Virus record (IMG/VR): IMGVR_UViG_2574180227_000018
Strand: one strand, 5' to 3'
DNA length: 6,635 bases
DNA from: a virus
Lineage: Duplodnaviria > Heunggongvirae > Uroviricota > Caudoviricetes
Notes under the pieces: generated by a model
What the model was told of the DNA's origin: nothing
Databases searched by the model: none
What the model saw: the letters and a program-made list of their open reading frames with translations, nothing else
Program-made: the position numbers and the translations under genes
Part shown: positions 1 through 6,635 of the stretch, in pieces
Layout of the letters: every line of letters starts with the position of its first letter
Numbering within the stretch: the first letter of the stretch is position 1

Positions 1-1053
1 TTAAACTTCGTTTAACGCTTCCTGTATTCTTCGACCAATCCATTTCATGACCGGTACAGGCATTGAATTTCCAATGGCCTTATAACGATGAGCTGGAGAT
101 GAATTTTTCCATGGAATATCTGTATATCCATCGGGAAAACCTTGTAGCCTCTCGCATTCGGTTGGCGTCAACCTACGAACCCTTGAATATGGCGCTCTTT
201 CAACTATGAGCCCACCAGACATAGTCATGTCCTGGTTAGTTGTTCCGTTATAGCCAGCTATTACTGTGCCTGTTCGTTTTGGCAATGCTTCAAGGCAATA
301 TCGGTGCAATTTTCCTTCAATGCCTTGATCAAGAAGGGATTCGGATTTTTTCTTCTTTCCGTAATAGTTTTTATCGCCCTGCGACACAGGCGGGAACTCA
401 AATAATACCTTTCCGGGATCGAGCCTTTTTCCAGCACTTGCCACAACAAACACTCTTCTGCGAGCCTGGGCGACTCCGAAATATTGGGCATCAAGTACTC
501 GCCAGGCGACGATACGCGATGGTCCAGACACAACACCAGCGTTTGCCCATCTTTTCCTTGCTGGCTGTAATGCGCAACCTGCTCCGGCCAGCGCACCAAG
601 AAAATGACCGAATGCATTGTCATGGCTACTTAAAACTCCTGTGACGTTTTCCCATACGATTATTGAGGGGGATTTATTGAGCGATGCCCGAACGGTATCT
701 ATCTGATTCGCCAGTTCAACAAAAGACAGTGTTAACTGCCCCCGTGGATCTGAAAGGCCTTTTCGTTTGCCTGACATACTGAATGCCTGACACGGAGTTC
801 CACCTACAAGAATATCTGGTGCTTCAATAAGCCCATCCCTGATACGAGGCGCAAGCAAAGCCATATCACCAAGATTTGGTATATGGGGCCAGCGATATGA
901 AAGAAGTGTTGACGGGAAGTCCTCTATTTCACTGAACCATCTGGCTTTCCAGCCAAGATTGCTCCAGGCTACTGTCGCAGCTTCAATACCACTGCATACT
1001 GAACCATAGGTTAGTGACTTATCAGACTGAAAGTAATGTTTCTTGTTCCCCAC
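1..1053 (-). CDS. DNA (cytosine-5)-methyltransferase, phage-type, complete (GTG start at 1053, stop codon at 1-3)
   Basis: 350-aa ORF carrying C5-MTase motifs in canonical order: catalytic PCQ (GGTPCQAFS), ENV (VWENVTG), QxRxR (QARRRVFVV), and C-terminal RRLTPTECERLQGFPDGYT and AIGNSMPVPV. Gly-rich N-terminal motif I-like stretch (VCSGIEAA). SD-like AAGGAAA lies 7 nt upstream of the GTG. Short target-recognition region between motifs VIII and IX. Confidence 0.9.
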   Translation of the reverse strand: MGNKKHYFQSDKSLTYGSVCSGIEAATVAWSNLGWKARWFSEIEDFPSTLLSYRWPHIPNLGDMALLAPRIRDGLIEAPDILVGGTPCQAFSMSGKRKGLSDPRGQLTLSFVELANQIDTVRASLNKSPSIIVWENVTGVLSSHDNAFGHFLGALAGAGCALQPARKRWANAGVVSGPSRIVAWRVLDAQYFGVAQARRRVFVVASAGKRLDPGKVLFEFPPVSQGDKNYYGKKKKSESLLDQGIEGKLHRYCLEALPKRTGTVIAGYNGTTNQDMTMSGGLIVERAPYSRVRRLTPTECERLQGFPDGYTDIPWKNSSPAHRYKAIGNSMPVPVMKWIGRRIQEALNEV

Positions 1054-1207
1054 GGCAGGATTTCCTTGTGTATGTGGGGTGCTCTGTGGCGCTCTGAGAT
1101 GTGATTTGATTGAGGGTTTTGCAGCGCGGACATTTTACTTCCAGATAACTGAAACTGGCCCGTGCCAGTAGCTTATTGCAGTGTCGGCACCGTATGTTTC
1201 GATACAT
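1022..1207 (-). CDS. com: Com-like C4 zinc-finger protein (phage Mu Com family translational activator); overlaps the methyltransferase start by 32 nt
   Basis: Translation MYRNIRCRHCNKLLARASFSYLEVKCPRCKTLNQI...EHPTYTRKSC has two CxxC knuckles with Mu Com-like spacing and flanking residues (IRCxxCNKLL, CPRCK, EHPT), as I recall the Mu Com sequence. ATG at 1207 is preceded by AGGAGG with 10-nt spacing; the ORF track's longer form (to 1252) starts on a non-ATG codon with no SD. Its 3' end overlaps the downstream DNA-modification gene, as com does with mom. Confidence 0.7.
   Translation of the reverse strand: MYRNIRCRHCNKLLARASFSYLEVKCPRCKTLNQITSQSATEHPTYTRKSCRGEQETLLSV
1048..1079 (-). promoter_or_regulatory. 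mRNA hairpin sequestering the methyltransferase GTG start; SD lies in the loop
   Basis: Inverted repeat ccccac (1048-1053) and gtgggg (1074-1079). In the minus-strand mRNA the 6-bp GC-rich stem pairs CCCCAC with GUGGGG, which is the GTG start plus the next codon. The 20-nt loop contains the AAGGAAA SD. Confidence 0.35.
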
Positions 1208-1616
1208 GGCCGCATAACCTCCTGCTTTGTTGTTGATGCCTTTCTCATGCAATCGATCGACAAAAACGATCGATTCGGTTTGTTTAATTGATACAACAAA
1301 TAGATTGAAAAGTCATCAACAATGATTCAGGGCGGTGATTATTTACTTAAAGAAAACGAAGAGTTAGGTGGTGAAAACGATCATAAAATGATCATTTTAT
1401 TGACTTTTTATACAGTGAAGGTAGGATTGTGCGTATATGTAGTATGTTTCAAATCAATGGGATACTACATACATAAAGGGCGACCCAGATAGCGCGAACT
1501 ATTCTGGGCCGATTTAGACAATTTTGCATCAATGCTTTACTTCGAGCTCGTGGCGTATCCTATGATATTCCCCGGTCTCCTGTAAAGCAGAGATGCATAA
1601 AAAGGAGATCTTTATC
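1208..1616. promoter_or_regulatory. Divergent intergenic regulatory region containing four GATC (Dam) sites in two close pairs
   Basis: AT-rich 409-bp region between divergent com (minus) and the small + strand gene. GATC at 1255-1258 and 1268-1271 sit in repeated TCGATCGA and CGATCGAT contexts; GATC at 1379-1382 and 1390-1393 sit in the inverted repeat GATCATAAAATGATCA. TTGACT at 1400-1405 is a possible -35 for the + strand gene. Promoters not confidently placed. Confidence 0.3.
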
Positions 1617-1787
1617 ATGGATAAAGAGCCTGTTTACCCTGCCTGTAAGACTCCCTTACAGCTCATCTATCGCCGTTCTCGATCTCAAAATGGCAAGACA
1701 TACAAACCAAAAAATGCTTCCTGTTTCAGGATGCTGATATGCCCTGCCTGTTCTCCCCAGAGGGAAAATACACAAAACGTGCATTAA
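1617..1787 (+). CDS. Hypothetical small Cys-containing protein (56 aa from ATG 1617; ORF track gives 64 aa from 1593)
   Basis: AAAGGAG SD at 1601-1607, 9 nt before ATG 1617. Product MDKEPVYPACKTPLQLIYRRSRSQNGKTYKPKNASCFRMLICPACSP has a CPxC knuckle plus two more Cys and is basic. No family recognised. Confidence 0.45.
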   Translation: MDKEPVYPACKTPLQLIYRRSRSQNGKTYKPKNASCFRMLICPACSPQRENTQNVH

Positions 1788-1796
1788 CAAATTCCC

Positions 1797-1816
1797 CCGG
1801 CAGGGAAACCTGCCGG
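1797..1816. terminator. Hairpin between convergent stop codons (8-bp stem, GAAA loop)
   Basis: ccggcagg gaaa cctgccgg lies between the + gene stop (1785-1787) and the minus gene stop (1826-1828). Flanking U-tracts are weak on both strands. Confidence 0.4.
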
Positions 1817-1825
1817 TCGGTATTG

Positions 1826-2071
1826 TTACATCATAGTACCGTCAGTTCCGGGCTGAACCGGCTCTGGTTGCTCTACGGGTTGAGGAGCATTTTCCGTGCT
1901 GTTTTCAGCCGGAGAACGGCCAACCATTCGGGCCAGCACTTCATCAACATATGCGTCGATTTGTGCCTCAAAATCCTTGCGAACCTGCGCCTTCAGCACG
2001 CGGTTCACTTCTTCAGAATAAAGTGCCTGTTTGACAAGCTCTTCAGTAACCGTGCCTTTAATCTCTGGCAT
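1826..2071 (-). CDS. Hypothetical protein, 81 aa (helical N-terminal half, Pro/Glu/Gln-rich acidic tail)
   Basis: Strong SD AAGGAG 7 nt upstream of ATG 2071. Protein-like composition. Starts 35 bp downstream of the 60-aa gene, so likely co-transcribed with it. Confidence 0.6.
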   Translation of the reverse strand: MPEIKGTVTEELVKQALYSEEVNRVLKAQVRKDFEAQIDAYVDEVLARMVGRSPAENSTENAPQPVEQPEPVQPGTDGTMM

Positions 2072-2106
2072 GAATATTCTCCTTTTGCAGGTATATTGCC
2101 CCGTTA

Positions 2107-2289
2107 TCAGAGCGGGGTCGGGTCGTTTGGGGATGATGGTGCCTGTGCTGTTTTACTGAGCTTTTCGGCTGCTGCGTCATCAATTTTGCGGCGAATATAA
2201 TTTCTGATGACCTTATAACCGCCGCTCACCAGATATAACGCACTGACCACAGCGCAGAAATAAAGCAGCATTGTATGAACGAATGTCAT
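2107..2289 (-). CDS. Hypothetical small membrane protein, 60 aa (one N-terminal transmembrane helix, charged C-terminal tail)
   Basis: SD TAAGG upstream of ATG 2289. Hydrophobic segment LLYFCAVVSALYLVSGG followed by KVIRNYIRRK. Confidence 0.5.
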   Translation of the reverse strand: MTFVHTMLLYFCAVVSALYLVSGGYKVIRNYIRRKIDDAAAEKLSKTAQAPSSPNDPTPL

Positions 2290-2358
2290 ATAACCTTACC
2301 TTTGATATTGACTACATAATTCGTTATCGGGTAAAAACATGACGAAGTGACTGGTAAC

Positions 2359-2384
2359 TACTCCTTCGGGAGTATTTTTATTTT
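2359..2384 (+). terminator. Intrinsic terminator-like hairpin, + strand orientation (6-bp stem, UUCG tetraloop, T-tract)
   Basis: tactcc ttcg ggagta followed by tttttatttt. The U-tract follows the hairpin only on the + strand. Confidence 0.4.
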
Positions 2385-2403
2385 CCTTTATGGGTTAGGT
2401 AGC

Positions 2404-2440
2404 TCCCGCCAGCCATATCATGACCGGCGGGATTTTTTTT
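2404..2440 (+). terminator. Intrinsic terminator-like hairpin, + strand orientation (7-bp GC stem, T8 tract)
   Basis: tcccgcc, a 15-nt loop, ggcggga, then tttttttt (2433-2440). On the minus strand the hairpin sits just after the esterase stop but has no following U-tract. Confidence 0.4.
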
Positions 2441-4478
2441 ATTCTGTTACCGCTTTTTTCACTTCCACCACAATGCTGTCAATCAGCACCGGGTAAGTTG
2501 CATTTTTGGTGATATCCGTTACGCGGAGTTTGTCCACCGGGAAAGTTCCTACTGGTGACTGCGTCAGGGTAAACGCGGCACCATCCTGACCATCAATAAC
2601 CGGAATAACCTGAAGGCTGTTATTTCCTGCAAAACGGAAGGCCAGCGTATGCCATTCATTATCAAATACACCAAAGGTTCCCAGTTTCTGGTTATTTGTT
2701 GCCACTTTTGCATTGTGGTGCATCACATTCAGGTCTTTTGCGTCTGTCTGGATGTAGAACGATGCCAGCAGATTATTCCCTGCATCCCCTGTCAGGGTGA
2801 CACCCTGCGGCAGAGAGGAAACCGGCCAGTAAAGCGCCATGACATACTGGTTTGCCACCAGGTCGCCAGGTACTTTAAAACGACAACTGATTAAACCACC
2901 ATTTTTCAGCAGTTCAGCACCAGTACCGGCATCATGATCCAGATACCAGGATGATTTACCTGTTTCCTTGGTCAGTTTCATTGCCTTACCACCTGTGCCT
3001 CCTGCATCACTGATAATTTCAGCTTTACCGCCAGCCGGCTCCCAGCCCTGGGCTTTCAGATTTCCTTCTGACTCACTGACACGGTAAGACAGCAGTGTTG
3101 TGGTTACTGCTTCAGTTTCTGAAGGTGACGGCACTGGTGCTTCAGTTTCAGAAGATGGAACATCGGCTTTTACTGTGGTTCGCCCTGCATGAGTCAGAAC
3201 AGCCGTGGCCAGACGGTCGGAAATAATCCCACGACGTGCCCATGAACTGAAATGGCTGGCCCGGCCCGCAGATGTCCAGGTGGCGGCACTGTTACGCCAC
3301 GTTGAGCCGTAATAACCAATGGATTCAATATCCGGGTCTTCTGTCGGATTGTTGGTGGGTACATTCGCGCCATTTTCATCTGTCATTAATGGGACGAAAT
3401 GAATGTTTTTATCTGTTTTATTTTTGTAGCCGTCATAGATTGCCTGGTATGCCTGTTCGTTTTTCTGTTTCCAGAAATACGTGGTATCGCCACAAATCCA
3501 CGGAACGCCAGCAGCACTGCCACCGGTACACTGTTCCGCCTGTTCAGCCAAGTCTGCGCGGAATTTTTCCACCATCGCCAGAAACAGCGCGGAATGCTCC
3601 GTCGGCTTCGCATCAATATCAAACTCGCCCTGCATCCACACCACAGCAAGCAGGCGGTTTTTCGGGTTCTTCGCCAGTGCCGCTTTTGTCCGGCTGATTA
3701 AGTCCTTATACAGCGGCTTATCCACACCCCAGCGGGCTGAGTCCTCTGAAGCACCCGTGCTGTCACTGTACGTGCCGTCAGCACCCGCCGTGAATGCAGA
3801 ACCACCACGGCAGCAGGGAACCAGCAGAATCCCCGCATCTGCCGGAATAAACGGCAGCAGTTTTTTGGCAATGTGAAGCCCCTGACCCACGGTGCCATAT
3901 TGCCCTTTAGCCACATCCGCTTTCGGGTGATTTTTTCCACTCATATCCTGCACATCATGCAGACAGTGGTCGGCCAGAATGATGTCGTTATACTGACAGG
4001 CTTTACCTCCCGGCGTGACTGTACTGCGACGGGCTAACTGCATAATACGCGGTTCGGGGTGGTCATATGTCTCCGGCAGCGGCAGACCTTCACCGTAGGC
4101 CATCCCGTTTGACTGACCAGCAAGAACCACCACGTAATACCAGGAAGGGGAGCTGGAAGCAGTTTCATTTCCTGACGGACGGGTATGTGTTTCAGCATTA
4201 TCCCAGTCTGACGGTTCAGCAGTACCGGCAACATCAGCACTTAACGGAATGACAGCACCAATACCCGCACCGGTAATTTCCACGCTCGGATCACCGGATA
4301 CTGGCCTTACCCACAGGCAATCCCGTGTATTAAAACTGATGAGACAGTCAGCAAATGTCATTCCTCCTTTTGTTTCGGCCGGAGGAAAGGGAGCCTCAAG
4401 AAATGCCGCTGTACCACCGGAAACTTTAACAGTAAAGTTTCCGGGCATTGATGATAGTTGAACCCATTTGGACGTCAT
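2439..4478 (-). CDS. SGNH/SASA-family carbohydrate esterase (sialate O-acetylesterase-like, prophage NanS-p-like architecture), 679 aa, three domains
   Basis: GQSN catalytic-serine motif in VVVLAGQSNGMAYGEG and a downstream WMQGEFD block, typical of sialate O-acetylesterase/SASA domains. About 110 aa of N-terminal domain, a Ser/Pro/Glu/Thr linker with tandem SETEA repeats, and about 250 aa of C-terminal Gly/Thr-rich, probably beta-rich domain. No signal peptide. ATG at 4478. Confidence 0.8.
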   Translation of the reverse strand: MTSKWVQLSSMPGNFTVKVSGGTAAFLEAPFPPAETKGGMTFADCLISFNTRDCLWVRPVSGDPSVEITGAGIGAVIPLSADVAGTAEPSDWDNAETHTRPSGNETASSSPSWYYVVVLAGQSNGMAYGEGLPLPETYDHPEPRIMQLARRSTVTPGGKACQYNDIILADHCLHDVQDMSGKNHPKADVAKGQYGTVGQGLHIAKKLLPFIPADAGILLVPCCRGGSAFTAGADGTYSDSTGASEDSARWGVDKPLYKDLISRTKAALAKNPKNRLLAVVWMQGEFDIDAKPTEHSALFLAMVEKFRADLAEQAEQCTGGSAAGVPWICGDTTYFWKQKNEQAYQAIYDGYKNKTDKNIHFVPLMTDENGANVPTNNPTEDPDIESIGYYGSTWRNSAATWTSAGRASHFSSWARRGIISDRLATAVLTHAGRTTVKADVPSSETEAPVPSPSETEAVTTTLLSYRVSESEGNLKAQGWEPAGGKAEIISDAGGTGGKAMKLTKETGKSSWYLDHDAGTGAELLKNGGLISCRFKVPGDLVANQYVMALYWPVSSLPQGVTLTGDAGNNLLASFYIQTDAKDLNVMHHNAKVATNNQKLGTFGVFDNEWHTLAFRFAGNNSLQVIPVIDGQDGAAFTLTQSPVGTFPVDKLRVTDITKNATYPVLIDSIVVEVKKAVTE

Positions 4479-4577
4479 AATAATCAGCCTGTTCCTGAAT
4501 AAACAGAATTATCATATCCACAGACCGATAAACGCCATTTTGCGTTAATTCAGTAAAGGCCCAACAAAGAGAGCGTC

Positions 4578-5138
4578 TTATTTTTCCGAAACGCTCGCAG
4601 GATAATAACGATAAAGGGTTGAAAGGCCGATATCAAAAATAAGTGCCACCTGTCTTCGGCTGACACCCCCGGCCAGTAAACGCCCGACCTGCTCGTATTG
4701 TTCCTGCGTGAGACGACGGGGTCTGCCGCCGGTTCGTCCCCTTTCACGGGCAGCAGCAAGACCAGCCCGTGTCCGTTCGACAATCAATTCACGCTCCATT
4801 TCTGCCAGCGCACCCATTATGTGAAAAAAGAAGCGCCCCATGGGGGTTGACGTATCAATGTTGTCAGTAAGACTACGAAAATTTATCCCCTGTTGCTGTA
4901 ATTCATCTGTCAGCGCAACAAGGTGGCGCATACTGCGCCCCAGCCTGTCCAGTTTCCAGACCATCAGTGTGTCGCCGGGTTTTAGTTTCTTCAGTGCCCG
5001 CTTCAGTCCCGGCCGCTGCGTCGTTTTACCACTCATTTTGTCTTCAAAAATCTGCTCACATCCTGCACATTCCAGCGCATTTCTTTGTAAACCTGTGTTC
5101 TGGTCATTTGTTGATACGCGTATATAGCCAATCAGCAT
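4578..5138 (-). CDS. pin: Serine recombinase, DNA invertase of the Pin/Gin/Hin/Cin family, 186 aa
   Basis: N-terminus MLIGYIRVSTNDQNTGLQ carries the catalytic Ser motif. Resolvase-type catalytic domain (VWKLDRLGRS, MGALAEMERELI) and C-terminal HTH (GGVSRRQVALIFDIGLSTLYRY). SD AAGGAAGG 7 nt upstream of the ATG. Immediately adjacent to an inverted-repeat-bounded segment. Confidence 0.95.
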   Translation of the reverse strand: MLIGYIRVSTNDQNTGLQRNALECAGCEQIFEDKMSGKTTQRPGLKRALKKLKPGDTLMVWKLDRLGRSMRHLVALTDELQQQGINFRSLTDNIDTSTPMGRFFFHIMGALAEMERELIVERTRAGLAAARERGRTGGRPRRLTQEQYEQVGRLLAGGVSRRQVALIFDIGLSTLYRYYPASVSEK

Positions 5139-5192
5139 GTATTTACCTTCCTTAAAAAGAGGTGGAAATGCTTTTTAAAGCAGATATACGGC

Positions 5193-5218
5193 ATCCCTGA
5201 AACCTCGGTTTACGGGAA
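5193..5218. other. Left inversion crossover site (gix/pix-like: two 12-bp half-sites around central TC at 5205-5206)
   Basis: atccctgaaacc tc ggtttacgggaa is an imperfect palindrome resembling the gix/hix core (AAACC-TC-GGTTT). An identical 26-bp copy lies inverted at the right edge. Confidence 0.7.
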
Positions 5219-5226
5219 ACGGTAAA
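5201..5226. repeat. Inverted repeat, left arm (26 bp, perfect match to reverse complement of 6610-6635)
   Basis: aacctcggtttacgggaaacggtaaa compared by eye with the reverse complement of the last 26 bases of the window. Confidence 0.85.
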
Positions 5227-5587
5227 CAGGGCGGCGAATGCCCTGCCATCGAACGGAACGGCCGTTGCCGCGAACAGGCTGGCAAATGCCCACACAATTA
5301 ATGGTGTTCCCTTTGACGGAACGCAGGATATCAACATTACCTCCGGTATGACCGAAGCTGCTGCTGATAACAAATACGTTCGCAACGTTCAGCTTGGTGC
5401 CCAGAGTTACCATTCACCCGGAGGTAATGAAATGTCCTGGAGTTATGGCGCGCCTTCCGGTTGTATGCTTTCAGGTATTAACGTGCAGGAGACCGGGAGA
5501 AATTCAGCCGATAATATCGGAGGCGTTTATTACCGTCCGGTGCAGATATATATCGGTAATGCCTGGCGCACAGTTTCATCCGTCTGA
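5201..5587 (+). CDS. Silent alternative tail-fiber C-terminal cassette (Sv'-like); no start of its own in this orientation
   Basis: Open frame begins right after a TGA at 5198-5200 and runs through the recombination site to the stop at 5585-5587. The encoded NLGLRETVNRAANALPSNGTAVAANRLA...INGVPFDGTQDINITSGM... parallels the minus-strand fiber C-terminus (NLGLRETVNKAADALPSGGTAVAANRLA...INGVPFDGTRDINITSGM...), and the ends are similar (VYYRPVQIYIGNAW versus VYYRQIQYCINGNW). Confidence 0.7.
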   Translation, partial: NLGLRETVNRAANALPSNGTAVAANRLANAHTINGVPFDGTQDINITSGMTEAAADNKYVRNVQLGAQSYHSPGGNEMSWSYGAPSGCMLSGINVQETGRNSADNIGGVYYRPVQIYIGNAWRTVSSV

Positions 5588-5595
5588 TTAAAGGA

Positions 5596-5618
5596 AAAGG
5601 GTGCGATAAGCACCCTTT
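5596..5618. terminator. Bidirectional terminator hairpin between the convergent Sv' cassette and tfa (9-bp stem, 5-nt loop)
   Basis: aaagggtgc gataa gcacccttt. On the minus strand it directly follows the tfa stop and is followed by a UUUUCCUUU tract. Confidence 0.6.
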
Positions 5619-5621
5619 ACG

Positions 5622-6164
5622 TTATTCAGGCTTCTCCGGCCATTTAATGTCGTCAAATTCAGCTTTGTTTTTAATCGCTGGTAGTTCCATTTTTTTCACC
5701 TGACTGATGTATGCCATCCATCGGGTAAGTGCGGCTCTGTCTTCATCACTGATGGTGCCCAGCTGTAATTCTGTTCTCCAGTCATTAATTTTTTCATATG
5801 CCTGATTAAGATATGACTGGCGCATTGCTTCCAGTTTTCTTGCGTAGTTAACCGGAATACGGGAGATCACGCCATTATCAAACTTCCAGTTACCCGAAAT
5901 ATCAGCACCTTCAGGGAGTTCGTCGACTTCAACCACAGAGAACCCCGCAGGATACAGCGCCGAAGCGTCCTGTGATATTGAGCAGATAATGCCGCTGTCA
6001 GGTGTTATACAAAGTTTATATTTTTTTGTGAATAATGGCAGGGACTCGTAGAAATCCTTACCATCTTCACTCTGAAAATACTGTACATCATTACCATAGA
6101 GGGTATTTTCCGGGTAATATCGTTTAACATTAATCAGTTGCATAAACATCACCATGTGAATCAA
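5622..6164 (-). CDS. tfa: Tail fiber assembly protein (Tfa chaperone; P2 G / Mu U / lambda Tfa family); probable start at ATG 6143
   Basis: C-terminal region LGTISDEDRAALTRWMAYISQV...DIKWPEKPE resembles the conserved Tfa C-terminus (lambda Tfa ends ...PDIEWPAVP), with SEDGKDFYE and ADISGNWKFDNGVI blocks upstream. The ORF-track start at 6164 is a TTG without SD; ATG 6143 has a GGTGA SD. Confidence 0.85.
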   Translation of the reverse strand: MIHMVMFMQLINVKRYYPENTLYGNDVQYFQSEDGKDFYESLPLFTKKYKLCITPDSGIICSISQDASALYPAGFSVVEVDELPEGADISGNWKFDNGVISRIPVNYARKLEAMRQSYLNQAYEKINDWRTELQLGTISDEDRAALTRWMAYISQVKKMELPAIKNKAEFDDIKWPEKPE

Positions 6165-6263
6165 TGATAAAAACAGGAATAATACTATCGCTATATACGG
6201 ACAGGGGTTGTCTGAGATAACGCATATATCAGGCGCTGCCTGCCGTACGCCATGAGCCGTTAA

Positions 6264-6635
6264 TTAAATACTTGCAGCGGATACCCAATTCCCATTAATA
6301 CAATATTGTATCTGTCTGTAATAAACACGGTCATCACCACCACGCATTTCCCAGTCTCCGTCAGTCTTAAAACCGGTAATCACATTTCCTGATGACAGGG
6401 AGTAATTATATTCCAGTACGCCGCTTAATGCCTGCGCTCCCAGTCTTACCCCTGTAACATAACGCTGATTGGCCGTTGATTCCGGCATTCCTGACGTAAT
6501 GTTTATATCCCGCGTCCCGTCGAAAGGAACACCATTAATATTTCTTGGGGTGGCGAGTCTGTTTGCTGCCACGGCGGTTCCCCCCGATGGCAGGGCATCA
6601 GCGGCCTTATTTACCGTTTCCCGTAAACCGAGGTT
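6264..6635 (-). CDS. Tail fiber protein, C-terminal variable part (Sv-like), 5'-truncated by the window edge; currently expressed orientation
   Basis: The reading frame is open from the last base of the window through the inverted repeat to the stop at 6264-6266. The ORF-track GTG at 6572 is internal. Homologous to the + strand cassette. Confidence 0.8.
   Translation of the reverse strand, partial: NLGLRETVNKAADALPSGGTAVAANRLATPRNINGVPFDGTRDINITSGMPESTANQRYVTGVRLGAQALSGVLEYNYSLSSGNVITGFKTDGDWEMRGGDDRVYYRQIQYCINGNWVSAASI
6610..6635. repeat. Inverted repeat, right arm (26 bp), part of the right inversion site, which continues past the window edge
   Basis: Reverse complement equals 5201-5226. 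The predicted crossover dinucleotide is at 6630-6631, so the outer half-site lies beyond the window. Confidence 0.85.

Follow-up and report, generated by a model that had tools for sequence, protein, structure and literature searches.

A C5 cytosine methyltransferase in the position of mom at the right end of an Sp18-type Mu-like prophage of Escherichia coli

The window analysed here is a 6,635-nucleotide stretch of viral DNA (Caudoviricetes) from the IMG/VR virus record IMGVR_UViG_2574180227_000018. It represents the right end of a Mu-like transposable prophage of the Sp18 type in Escherichia coli and comprises four units on the minus strand (Table 1). The first unit is a 1.4-kb tail-fibre host-range switch, bounded by two gix sites and turned over by a Gin-type invertase. 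The second is a 3.3-kb accessory block that holds a NanS-p esterase gene, two small genes encoding DUF1378 and DUF826 proteins, a terminator-like hairpin and a decayed open reading frame (ORF). The third unit consists of com and its upstream control region, and the fourth is a gene for a C5 cytosine DNA methyltransferase (MTase) that occupies the mom position. It is textbook knowledge that the right end of phage Mu reads tail-fibre switch, gin, com, mom. An earlier note on this DNA had listed a fibre gene, an invertible segment, an invertase, com and a modification gene in that same order, and the ORF list and the Pfam scan bear out both the genes and their arrangement, the genes of the Mu-like set all lying on the minus strand at the positions the note had assigned to them. 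The note had confined the locus to positions 1–5138, and in this it fell short, as the inversion segment itself lies outside that span at about 5206–6630. No full-length identical record was found; the top match was 99.4% identical over window positions 1–5354, and one E. coli genome carries an MTase gene 100% identical to that of the window, with 98% identity in the aligned parts of the window. Scans of the window with Rfam and for tRNA genes gave no matches.

Table 1. Features of the 6,635-nucleotide window, ordered by position.
Feature	Position	Strand	Evidence and details
C5 cytosine DNA methyltransferase, 350 aa	1..1053	-	PF00145, E 1.6e-42; GTG start 1053-1051, stop 3-1
com, 61-aa zinc-ribbon translational activator (CxxC...CxxC)	1022..1207	-	PF10122, E 1e-12; RefSeq Com family protein
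5' cassette junction	1036..1044	-	alignment of window, O157 Mom version and Mu; junction strings, 10 loci
Start-codon hairpin (equivalent of the Mu translation inhibition structure)	1048..1079	-	CCCCAC 1079-1074, GUGGGG 1053-1048
Candidate Com-binding hairpin GCGC-CACAGA-GCAC	1079..1092	-	CC-N3-GAG (CC-ACA-GAG) at 1089-1082
Region upstream of com, presumed com-MTase promoter/operator	1208..1340	-	conservation; analogy to Mu Pmom
Decayed ORF, two fragments in different frames	1322..1787	+	1322-1492 and 1593-1787
Terminator-like hairpin and T-run	1792..1808	-	consensus scan; 18 bp past DUF826 stop, closes block
DUF826 small protein, 81 aa, third cargo gene	1826..2071	-	PF05696, E 3e-15; phrog_311
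DUF1378 small hydrophobic protein, 60 aa, second cargo gene	2107..2289	-	PF07125, E 1e-38
NanS-p-type sialate O-acetylesterase, 679 aa	2439..4478	-	PF03629 (SASA) and PF20350 (DUF6645)
Gin/Pin-type serine DNA invertase, 186 aa	4578..5138	-	PF00239 (E 1.4e-51) and PF02796
gix-type crossover site beside invertase, ATCCCTGAAACC-TC-GGTTTACGGGAA	5193..5218	.	Mu gix core
Alternative tail-fibre C-terminal segment (Sv'), silent here	5201..5587	+	phrog_1833 tail fiber, E 1e-53
Tail-fibre assembly chaperone, sole one in segment	5622..6164	-	PF02413, E 3e-19
Expressed tail-fibre C-terminal segment (Sv)	6264..6635	-	phrog_1833, E 5e-27; 56% to Mu S C terminus
Distal gix-type site, cut by right edge	6618..6635	.	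crossover core 6630-6631

The MTase ORF is intact, and the motifs GSVCSGIE (I), GGTPCQAF (IV), WENV (VI), QARRRVF (QxRxRVF, VIII) and IGNSMPVPV (X) are invariant in a 12-homologue alignment. The nearest solved structures are those of M.HhaI and M.HaeIII, the matches covering the catalytic motifs only, and the alignment to M.HhaI runs over motifs IV–VI and IX–X. RefSeq labels the identical gene DNA cytosine methyltransferase; such database names are generic and give no target sequence. In the Pfam scan, this last gene matched no Mom family (PF25680), and no nuclease family was detected in the window, so that the MTase is an orphan enzyme. The left edge of the window is the final base of the MTase stop codon, as the earlier note had seen. 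A restriction–modification system was also considered and ruled out; the gene upstream is com, and downstream there are 164 bp and then the end of the prophage.

The position of the MTase is explained by comparison with sister phages. In BLAST searches, the matches of many genomes begin at window position 1039 and extend only to the right of it, and in O157:H7-type relatives com is followed by a 245-aa Mom protein (PF25680, E 2.6e-77) that is 79% identical to Mu Mom. Thus, the suggestion of the earlier note that a modification enzyme had been swapped is confirmed by relatives that are co-linear with the window from about 1039 and carry true Mom after com. The Sp18 prophage of O157:H7 Sakai and Sp18-like prophages in E. 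coli strains that produce Shiga toxin (STEC) are 92–98% identical to the window from 1039 to the right edge. They share com, the cargo block, the invertase, the fibre switch and the terminal 93 bp, and are likewise found at variable sites, including Shiga toxin (Stx) prophages, but have Mom in place of the MTase. Sp18 prophages are therefore essentially the same phage as that of the window.

Both junctions of the exchange can be located. The MTase and Mom versions are alike, with three substitutions, through com, the hairpin region and the bases GTG GGG AAC A, and are unrelated beyond. This places the 5' swap point at codon 4 or 5, 10–11 nt into the last gene and directly 3' of the hairpin that sequesters the GUG start codon. 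At the 3' side, homology returns about 70 bp past the MTase stop codon, approximately 93 bp from the prophage terminus and just outside a set of GTATCAAA repeats. As judged from these two boundaries in the alignments, the exchanged unit is the enzyme body from about codon 5 together with a 3' tail of about 70 bp.

The 3' end of com overlaps the MTase ORF by 32 bp (1022–1053), and com itself is preceded by a Shine–Dalgarno sequence, AGGAGG, at 1223–1218. Across its zinc ribbon, the encoded protein shares 52% identity with Mu Com. In Mu, the target of Com was defined by systematic evolution of ligands by exponential enrichment (SELEX) and footprinting as the motif 5'-CC(N)2-3GAG-3', displayed by a short hairpin in a loop of six bases with a C–G closing pair, and this hairpin adjoins the translation inhibition structure, whose stem holds the GUG start codon of mom (PMC6483171). 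The candidate Com-binding hairpin of the window likewise has a six-base loop closed by a C–G pair, lies directly 5' of the start-codon hairpin and aligns with the Mu element AUGC-CUGCGA-GCAU. The middle bases of the motif vary by lineage (ACA, AUC, AGC, AUU), while CC and GAG are constant.

In the start-codon hairpin, the GUG of the 3' arm is the MTase start codon, and the loop holds a Shine–Dalgarno-like AAGGA at 1067–1063. The predicted folding energy is −12.0 kcal/mol (z −2.4), a value reached by 2 of 200 shuffled sequences, and this fold is also predicted for the relatives that carry Mom or an N6/N4 MTase and for those of Salmonella. The CC-N3-GAG loop followed by the CCCCAC...GUGGGG hairpin is kept in the window, in the Mom-type phages, in the Salmonella MTase version, in an E. 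coli MTase version 79% identical to that of the window, and in Mu. By analogy with mom, the MTase would be translated only once Com has opened the hairpin.

A Com-anchored scan of IMG/VR yielded 80 loci, at which the gene after com encodes Mom (29), an MTase of the same C5 family (9), an N6/N4 MTase of PF01555 (32), a Dam-type enzyme (3) or a protein of uncertain type (7). The Com motif and the CCCCAC...GTGGGG hairpin, with an ORF starting at that GTG, were present at 29 of 29 Mom loci, 9 of 9 C5-MTase loci and 32 of 32 N6/N4-MTase loci, or 70 of 70. The E. coli-type and the Salmonella-type lineages of com were each found with Mom or with a C5-MTase. At the PF01555 loci (L053–L084) the MTase after com has 260–268 aa and a gene start at about 3143–3152, with the GTGGGG start in the hairpin. 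At the Dam-type loci (L086–L088) com is more distant and the hairpin is not recognisable. At L091 (3295–4404) a weak Com-like match precedes a gene for a protein with a P-loop and a GNAT acetyltransferase domain, at least 369 aa long. This may be one more modification enzyme linked to Com, unless the match to Com arose by chance.

Among 5426 complete E. coli genomes, the MTase type was found in 10, with com present every time, and the Mom type in 226. All ten genomes carry an intact MTase ORF, with an identity of at least 99.8%, at various chromosomal sites and inside two Stx phages. Alleles that are 79% identical (in other E. coli) and 68% identical (in Salmonella) both have the MGN... start and the same in-frame junction, and a single cluster of the Salmonella allele comprises 1584 member sequences. 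Because alleles this divergent share the MGN... start, the fusion of com to the MTase is, on sequence grounds, old and widespread and no accident of a single strain.

Replacement of mom by a methyltransferase has been described before. In FluMu (hin1523), Pnm1 (nma1821), an island of Haemophilus influenzae aegyptius (hia5) and Pseudomonas phage B3, a non-Mom N6-adenine MTase lies behind com, and possible Com-binding elements were proposed at the 5' end of hin1523 (Drozdz et al. 2012, PMC3299994). These operons resemble the window in having a com homologue followed by an unrelated DNA methyltransferase at the mom position. In contrast, their enzymes are directed at adenine N6, and the window enzyme is a C5 cytosine MTase of another fold family with another target base. 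A further difference is that the window has sister phages of the Mom type, by comparison with which its junction at the start-codon hairpin is resolved to within a few bases. In the literature library searched there was no paper on a C5 enzyme behind com and no paper on a start-codon-hairpin junction common to three enzyme classes. The window thus extends the published observation and overturns nothing.

The closest relatives of the enzyme outside Mu-like phages are encoded by lambdoid prophages. Homologues in Citrobacter and Pectobacterium are 69–70% identical over residues 13–350 and have another N terminus (MTS...). They sit in the late transcript, between the Q antiterminator gene (or DNA-replication and RusA genes) and the lysis genes. 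More distant relatives are those of phage ZF40 (64% identical) and the C5 domain of P1 Dmt (46–48%). Taken together, lambdoid late-region C5 MTases of Citrobacter, Klebsiella, Enterobacter and Pectobacterium, along with that of ZF40, are 64–70% identical to the window MTase in the enzyme body. Like the window MTase, the lambdoid, ZF40 and P1 Dmt enzymes are orphans encoded in phage late regions. The lambdoid versions differ in their MTS... N terminus, their position between Q and lysis genes and the lack of com, whereas the Mu-like versions read MGN... from the mom start and overlap com. A search for a closer lambdoid donor inside E. coli found none; the only matches were to P1-type Dmt genes, partial and of about 70% nucleotide identity.

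The prophage context and the terminus were read from near-identical loci and lie outside the window. Loci 98–100% identical to the window sit in complete Mu-type transposable prophages. One of these, in the E. coli genome with the 100% identical MTase gene, splits ttdB, with one half of the gene on each side, and carries a repressor-like gene, a Ner-like gene, genes for the Mu transposase, a MuB-type ATPase (AAA), Gam and a Mor-family activator, lysis genes, and genes for DUF935, a Mu F-like protein, the gpT head protein, sheath, tube and baseplate. The reading of the locus as a Mu-type right end, put forward in the earlier note, is upheld by this context. The note had further supposed that the prophage boundary lies just beyond position 1, and a comparison of eight independent insertions (in ttdB, rhsD and melA, in two prophages of lambdoid or Stx type, and at three further sites) places the right terminus 164 bp to the left of that position. 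The eight insertions share a common sequence up to ...AAAAAAATCGCCGCGCTATA and then diverge. The terminus reads ...CGCCGCGCTATA (L001, 19837–19850, and seven other loci), with TA as its last bases, and the distance of 164 bp agrees with the annotation of a Mu-like phage inserted in an Stx1a phage. The last 93 bp before the terminus contain three GTATCAAA repeats that resemble transposase-binding sites. The terminus of the window family thus ends in ...CTATA, and that of Mu in ...CTTCA (...GCCGCTTCA).

Sp18-like Mu-like phages of STEC are a recognised family, often inserted in other mobile elements (PMC10132054). The earlier note had held that a lambdoid or P2-type structural gene directly left of the MTase would speak against its reading. 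A lambdoid gene was seen directly left of the element in some genomes, but the Mu-type reading stands, because these are cases of transposition of the Mu-like phage into a prophage of lambdoid type. The Mu-type context rules out that the window is the end of a P2- or lambda-type prophage. Similarly, an IS or integron-type cassette was ruled out, genes of that sort being absent from the locus. One strain, FHI_NMBU_11 (NZ_CP045712.1), contains two Mu-like prophages of the same family, at about 521590 and 3574022, one with Mom and the other with the C5-MTase.

The right end of Mu and the window are alike in gene order and orientation, in a 14-bp gix core, in a CC-N3-GAG loop with a GUG-sequestering hairpin after it, and in terminal repeats beyond which variable host sequence begins. 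They differ in that Mu has a 94-bp gap between invertase and com, Mom and two chaperone genes, and the window has 3.3 kb of cargo, a C5 MTase and a single chaperone gene.

The presumed promoter and operator of com and the MTase lie in the region upstream of com, a role suggested by analogy with Mu Pmom. In AST198, homology to the window upstream of com stops at 1340. Within the region there is a perfect 25-bp palindrome, AATCGATCG-TTTTTGT-CGATCGATT, at 1251–1275; it includes two GATC (Dam) sites and is located 44–68 bp upstream of the start of com. The palindrome is kept in a Salmonella relative despite diverged flanks. It may be an operator, perhaps one that responds to methylation as the GATC cluster of Mu Pmom does.

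From the invertase stop codon to the com start there are 3,370 bp, compared with 94 bp in Mu, which agrees with the inserted cargo of about 3 kb recognised in the earlier note. The esterase consists of an N-terminal part, a SASA domain (residues ~104–428) and a C-terminal lectin-like DUF6645 domain (~459–674). It matches the solved structures of NanS (3pt5, E 1.6e-118) and NanS-p (6yp6, E 4e-111), and from residue ~100 onwards it is 77–81% identical in nucleotides and 77–80% identical in protein to nanS-p of Stx phages. The N-terminal ~95 residues (4194–4478, minus strand) are particular to Mu-like versions and about 60% conserved between two Mu-like lineages. Residues 1–100 matched no Pfam family, and the N terminus gave no alignment with DUF1737 or with the N termini of Stx-phage enzymes. 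In the phi24B NanS-p, the DUF1737 N-terminal domain is capsid-binding (bioRxiv 10.64898/2026.04.10.717836). An exhaustive HMMER search of 1.84 billion representative proteins returned five weak matches to the esterase's N-terminal domain, with no informative domains, and an AlphaFold model from the single sequence was unusable (mean pLDDT 46). The domain might dock the enzyme to a different virion, or serve otherwise.

The DUF1378 protein is 53–56% identical to the product of the gene after nanS-p in Stx phages, and the DUF826 protein is 45% identical to that of the same-position gene of Stx phage 1720a-02. The order in 1720a-02 is stx2A, nanS-p, a 60-aa gene, an 81-aa gene and holin, and the three-gene block shows protein identities of 80%, 56% and 45% to that of the window; Stx phage 1717 has the first two cargo genes in the same arrangement. 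The Stx-phage blocks (933W, 1717, 1720a-02, phi24B gp84) thus correspond to the window block in genes, order, orientation and sizes. They differ in lying between stx and holin rather than between invertase and com, in small genes of 45–56% identity, and in having a DUF1737 N terminus instead of the unrelated ~95-residue domain. The earlier note had regarded cargo shared with unrelated contexts as a point against its Mu-type reading. The block does occur in Stx phages, and this points to the origin of the cargo, leaving the Mu-type reading intact.

All E. coli members examined, and approximately 220 complete genomes, contain the cargo block, which occurs in several allelic forms. Salmonella relatives have other genes at this position and Mu has none. 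Upstream of com, the first fragment of the decayed ORF corresponds to the first 53 positions of phrog_26524 (E 8e-29), and RefSeq marks a frameshift in all three relatives examined. A search of a phage collection with the segment 1290–1830, which holds this ORF, found no similar DNA except in two records of the same Mu-like family. RefSeq annotates the genes of the locus individually, and no paper in the literature library searched links nanS-p to Mu-like phages or Sp18. By sequence comparison, the closest relatives outside Mu-like phages, for the cargo block and for the MTase alike, occupy the accessory slot of lambdoid phages, between Q and the lysis genes. Members of this Sp18-type family have repeatedly inserted in lambdoid prophages, and it is plausible that such insertions were the source of the cargo and the MTase.

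The invertase shares 75% of its residues with Gin of Mu and 72% with PinE of e14. Beside it, AAACCTCGGTTT occurs at 5200–5211, with 0.03 occurrences expected by chance, and the 14-mer AAACCTCGGTTTAC at 5200–5213 is identical to both annotated boundaries of the Mu G segment. The distal gix site is truncated where the window ends on the right, one base before the AAACC half-site; the full site is visible in another locus (L001, 26621–26632). The minus-strand start of the window, AACCTCGGTTTACGGGAAACGG, equals plus-strand positions 5201–5222, and the expressed segment Sv (6264–6635) forms inverted repeats with 5201–5356, the constant fibre part lying beyond the window. The segment from 5206 to 6630 contains two fibre C termini and one chaperone gene, where Mu has both U and U'; the chaperone is 32–33% identical to each of these. 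A small hairpin (5591–5623) separates the convergent ends. The inversion segment was seen both ways, the orientation of the chaperone gene being opposite in two sister prophages (L006 and L007). In FHI_NMBU_11 the Sv' segment is the one fused to the constant fibre part, and in this flipped state the chaperone gene follows the fibre gene on the opposite strand.

The reading favoured here, and considered probable, is that of an Sp18-type Mu-like right end with a C5 MTase in the place of mom, serving a Com-gated, late anti-restriction role. By analogy with Mu, the com operon would be transcribed late in lytic growth. Com would then bind the CC-N3-GAG hairpin and open the adjacent start-codon hairpin, so that the methyltransferase would be translated at that late stage only. 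Replicated phage DNA would be methylated before packaging, and the progeny would resist restriction enzymes sensitive to 5-methylcytosine (m5C) in the next host. Tight gating would also keep m5C off the lysogen chromosome, where enzymes of the McrA and McrBC types could attack it.

Several points weigh against this reading. m5C blocks fewer restriction enzymes than the adenine modification made by Mom and can attract type IV enzymes; for this reason it is hard to see what selective benefit the MTase type brings, and the Mom type outnumbers it about 20-fold. The stem of the candidate Com hairpin contains a C–A mismatch and folds weakly alone (−1.7 kcal/mol). Within the enterobacterial set the stem of the start-codon hairpin shows no base variation, and hence no compensatory changes that would point to selection on structure rather than on sequence. 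The argument for Com dependence is one from conservation of sequence. A consensus promoter scan upstream of com gave no convincing sigma-70 site, as would be expected of an activator-dependent promoter. Finally, some prophage copies may be defective, because the tape-measure gene is frameshifted in the carrier prophage of FHI_NMBU_11.

A rival proposal is that the prophage end is dead and the locus no more than a remnant without present function, in which the com–MTase fusion arose as an accidental product of recombination. Besides the frameshifted tape-measure gene, the AST198 copy lacks structural genes, its fibre fragments adjoining the MuB and transposase genes, the cargo region holds a decayed ORF, and the MTase type is rare. 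An accident of this kind is highly improbable given an ORF that is intact and nearly invariant in ten genomes at different sites, two of them Stx phages, divergent alleles, found in Salmonella and in further E. coli, that keep the in-frame junction, catalytic motifs that are all conserved, and an inversion segment found in both orientations. It is also unlikely, if less so, that the MTase is a lysogenic-conversion or epigenetic gene, expressed independently of Com in the prophage and methylating the host chromosome with effects on expression or on incoming restriction. The gene does lie at the very end of the prophage, a typical place for accessory genes, and orphan phage methyltransferases are common. 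Moreover, the neighbouring NanS-p belongs to a type widely seen as benefiting the lysogen (PMC10462455; bioRxiv 10.64898/2026.04.10.717836). However, the MTase ORF has no start region of its own, as its GUG is inside the conserved inhibitory hairpin and overlaps com; the junction kept in 70 of 70 relatives, whatever enzyme follows, is hard to explain if the gate is unused; and the lambdoid homologues lie in a late transcript. A broader version of the favoured reading takes the Com hairpin and the GUG hairpin as a universal docking site for toxic DNA-modification enzymes in Mu-like phages, at which Mom, C5, N6/N4 and Dam cassettes would be exchanged by recombination, with late-region accessory genes of the lambdoid prophages that often receive these phages as donors. 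The 11-nt junction GUGGGGAAC.. is common to the Mom, C5 and N6/N4 classes, and the three Dam-type loci lack it; as a general rule this version is possible but doubtful. Within it, the C5 enzyme could be a broad- or short-site 'hypermethylase' that confers generalised protection, a cytosine counterpart of Mom and of Hia5, Hin1523 and Nma1821, which methylate adenine non-specifically.

The remaining alternative is the proposal of the earlier note that a dedicated arms-race slot beside pin/gin invertases recruits genes for cytosine modification or modification-dependent restriction. The observation behind it is correct, as mcrA does lie beside pinE at the end of prophage e14, and in Mu and the window family the modification gene is 0.1–3.4 kb from the invertase. 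Like the window, e14 combines a Pin-type invertase (72%) that ends a tail-fibre switch, a gene related to cytosine methylation and a prophage boundary. Unlike the window, its mcrA encodes a restriction enzyme, has its own expression signals and is adjacent to pinE; e14 is not transposable and has neither com nor a gating hairpin. The gene that adjoins the window invertase is the esterase, no modification gene. An invertase scan of one genome per species (GTDB species representatives) gave 21 usable loci, a small sample, and a panel search for Com, Mom and McrA found them at 0 of the 21. A DNA methyltransferase lay within 3.5 kb of the invertase at two. When one neighbour gene from each of ten loci was scanned with Pfam, the result was one P2-type tail sheath, two tape-measure-type proteins, one integrase, a glycosyltransferase, an RpiR-family regulator and a secretin (host-type), one protein without a family, and two MTases. 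Nine or ten further loci have genes of sheath-locus sizes (~390 aa, ~172 aa and 809–1039 aa), matched by size only. The two MTases are an N6/N4 enzyme (L104) and a C5 enzyme 3 kb from the invertase on a Pantoea plasmid (L115), and both can be cited for the slot. The former, in a P2-like Enterobacter prophage (L104, 777–1529), lies without com between a Pin-type invertase and a 390-aa ORF that is a P2-type sheath by size, and is 55% identical to a Com-linked cassette. It is com and the phage end, rather than the invertase, that the modification gene goes with; it co-varies with com and the hairpin, and several Com-linked cassettes have no invertase within 3 kb. The likeness of Mu, Sp18 and e14 is more simply that of the end of a late or tail region at a prophage boundary. 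A dedicated slot is thus quite improbable, and owing to the small sample the generalisation is unsupported rather than disproved.

The Mu gene order, the Sp18-like phages and the replacement of mom by other methylases were already known; what appears new is the detail, namely the C5 enzyme, the common junction and the NanS-p block. It offers a view, at the level of base pairs, of a phage that would have changed its anti-restriction chemistry while keeping its translational safety catch. The com hairpin may serve as a natural, portable translational gate for toxic DNA-modifying enzymes. Because sister phages differing only in the cassette exist in sequenced STEC, adenine and cytosine modification can be compared directly against restriction, including type IV (Mcr) enzymes, and FHI_NMBU_11 is a natural strain for setting the Mom cassette beside the C5-MTase cassette. 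In addition, the locus points to the acquisition by a Mu-like phage of late-region genes from lambdoid (Stx-type) phages, for the NanS-p block and probably for the methylase, which bears on the exchange of fitness genes among the prophage pools of STEC.

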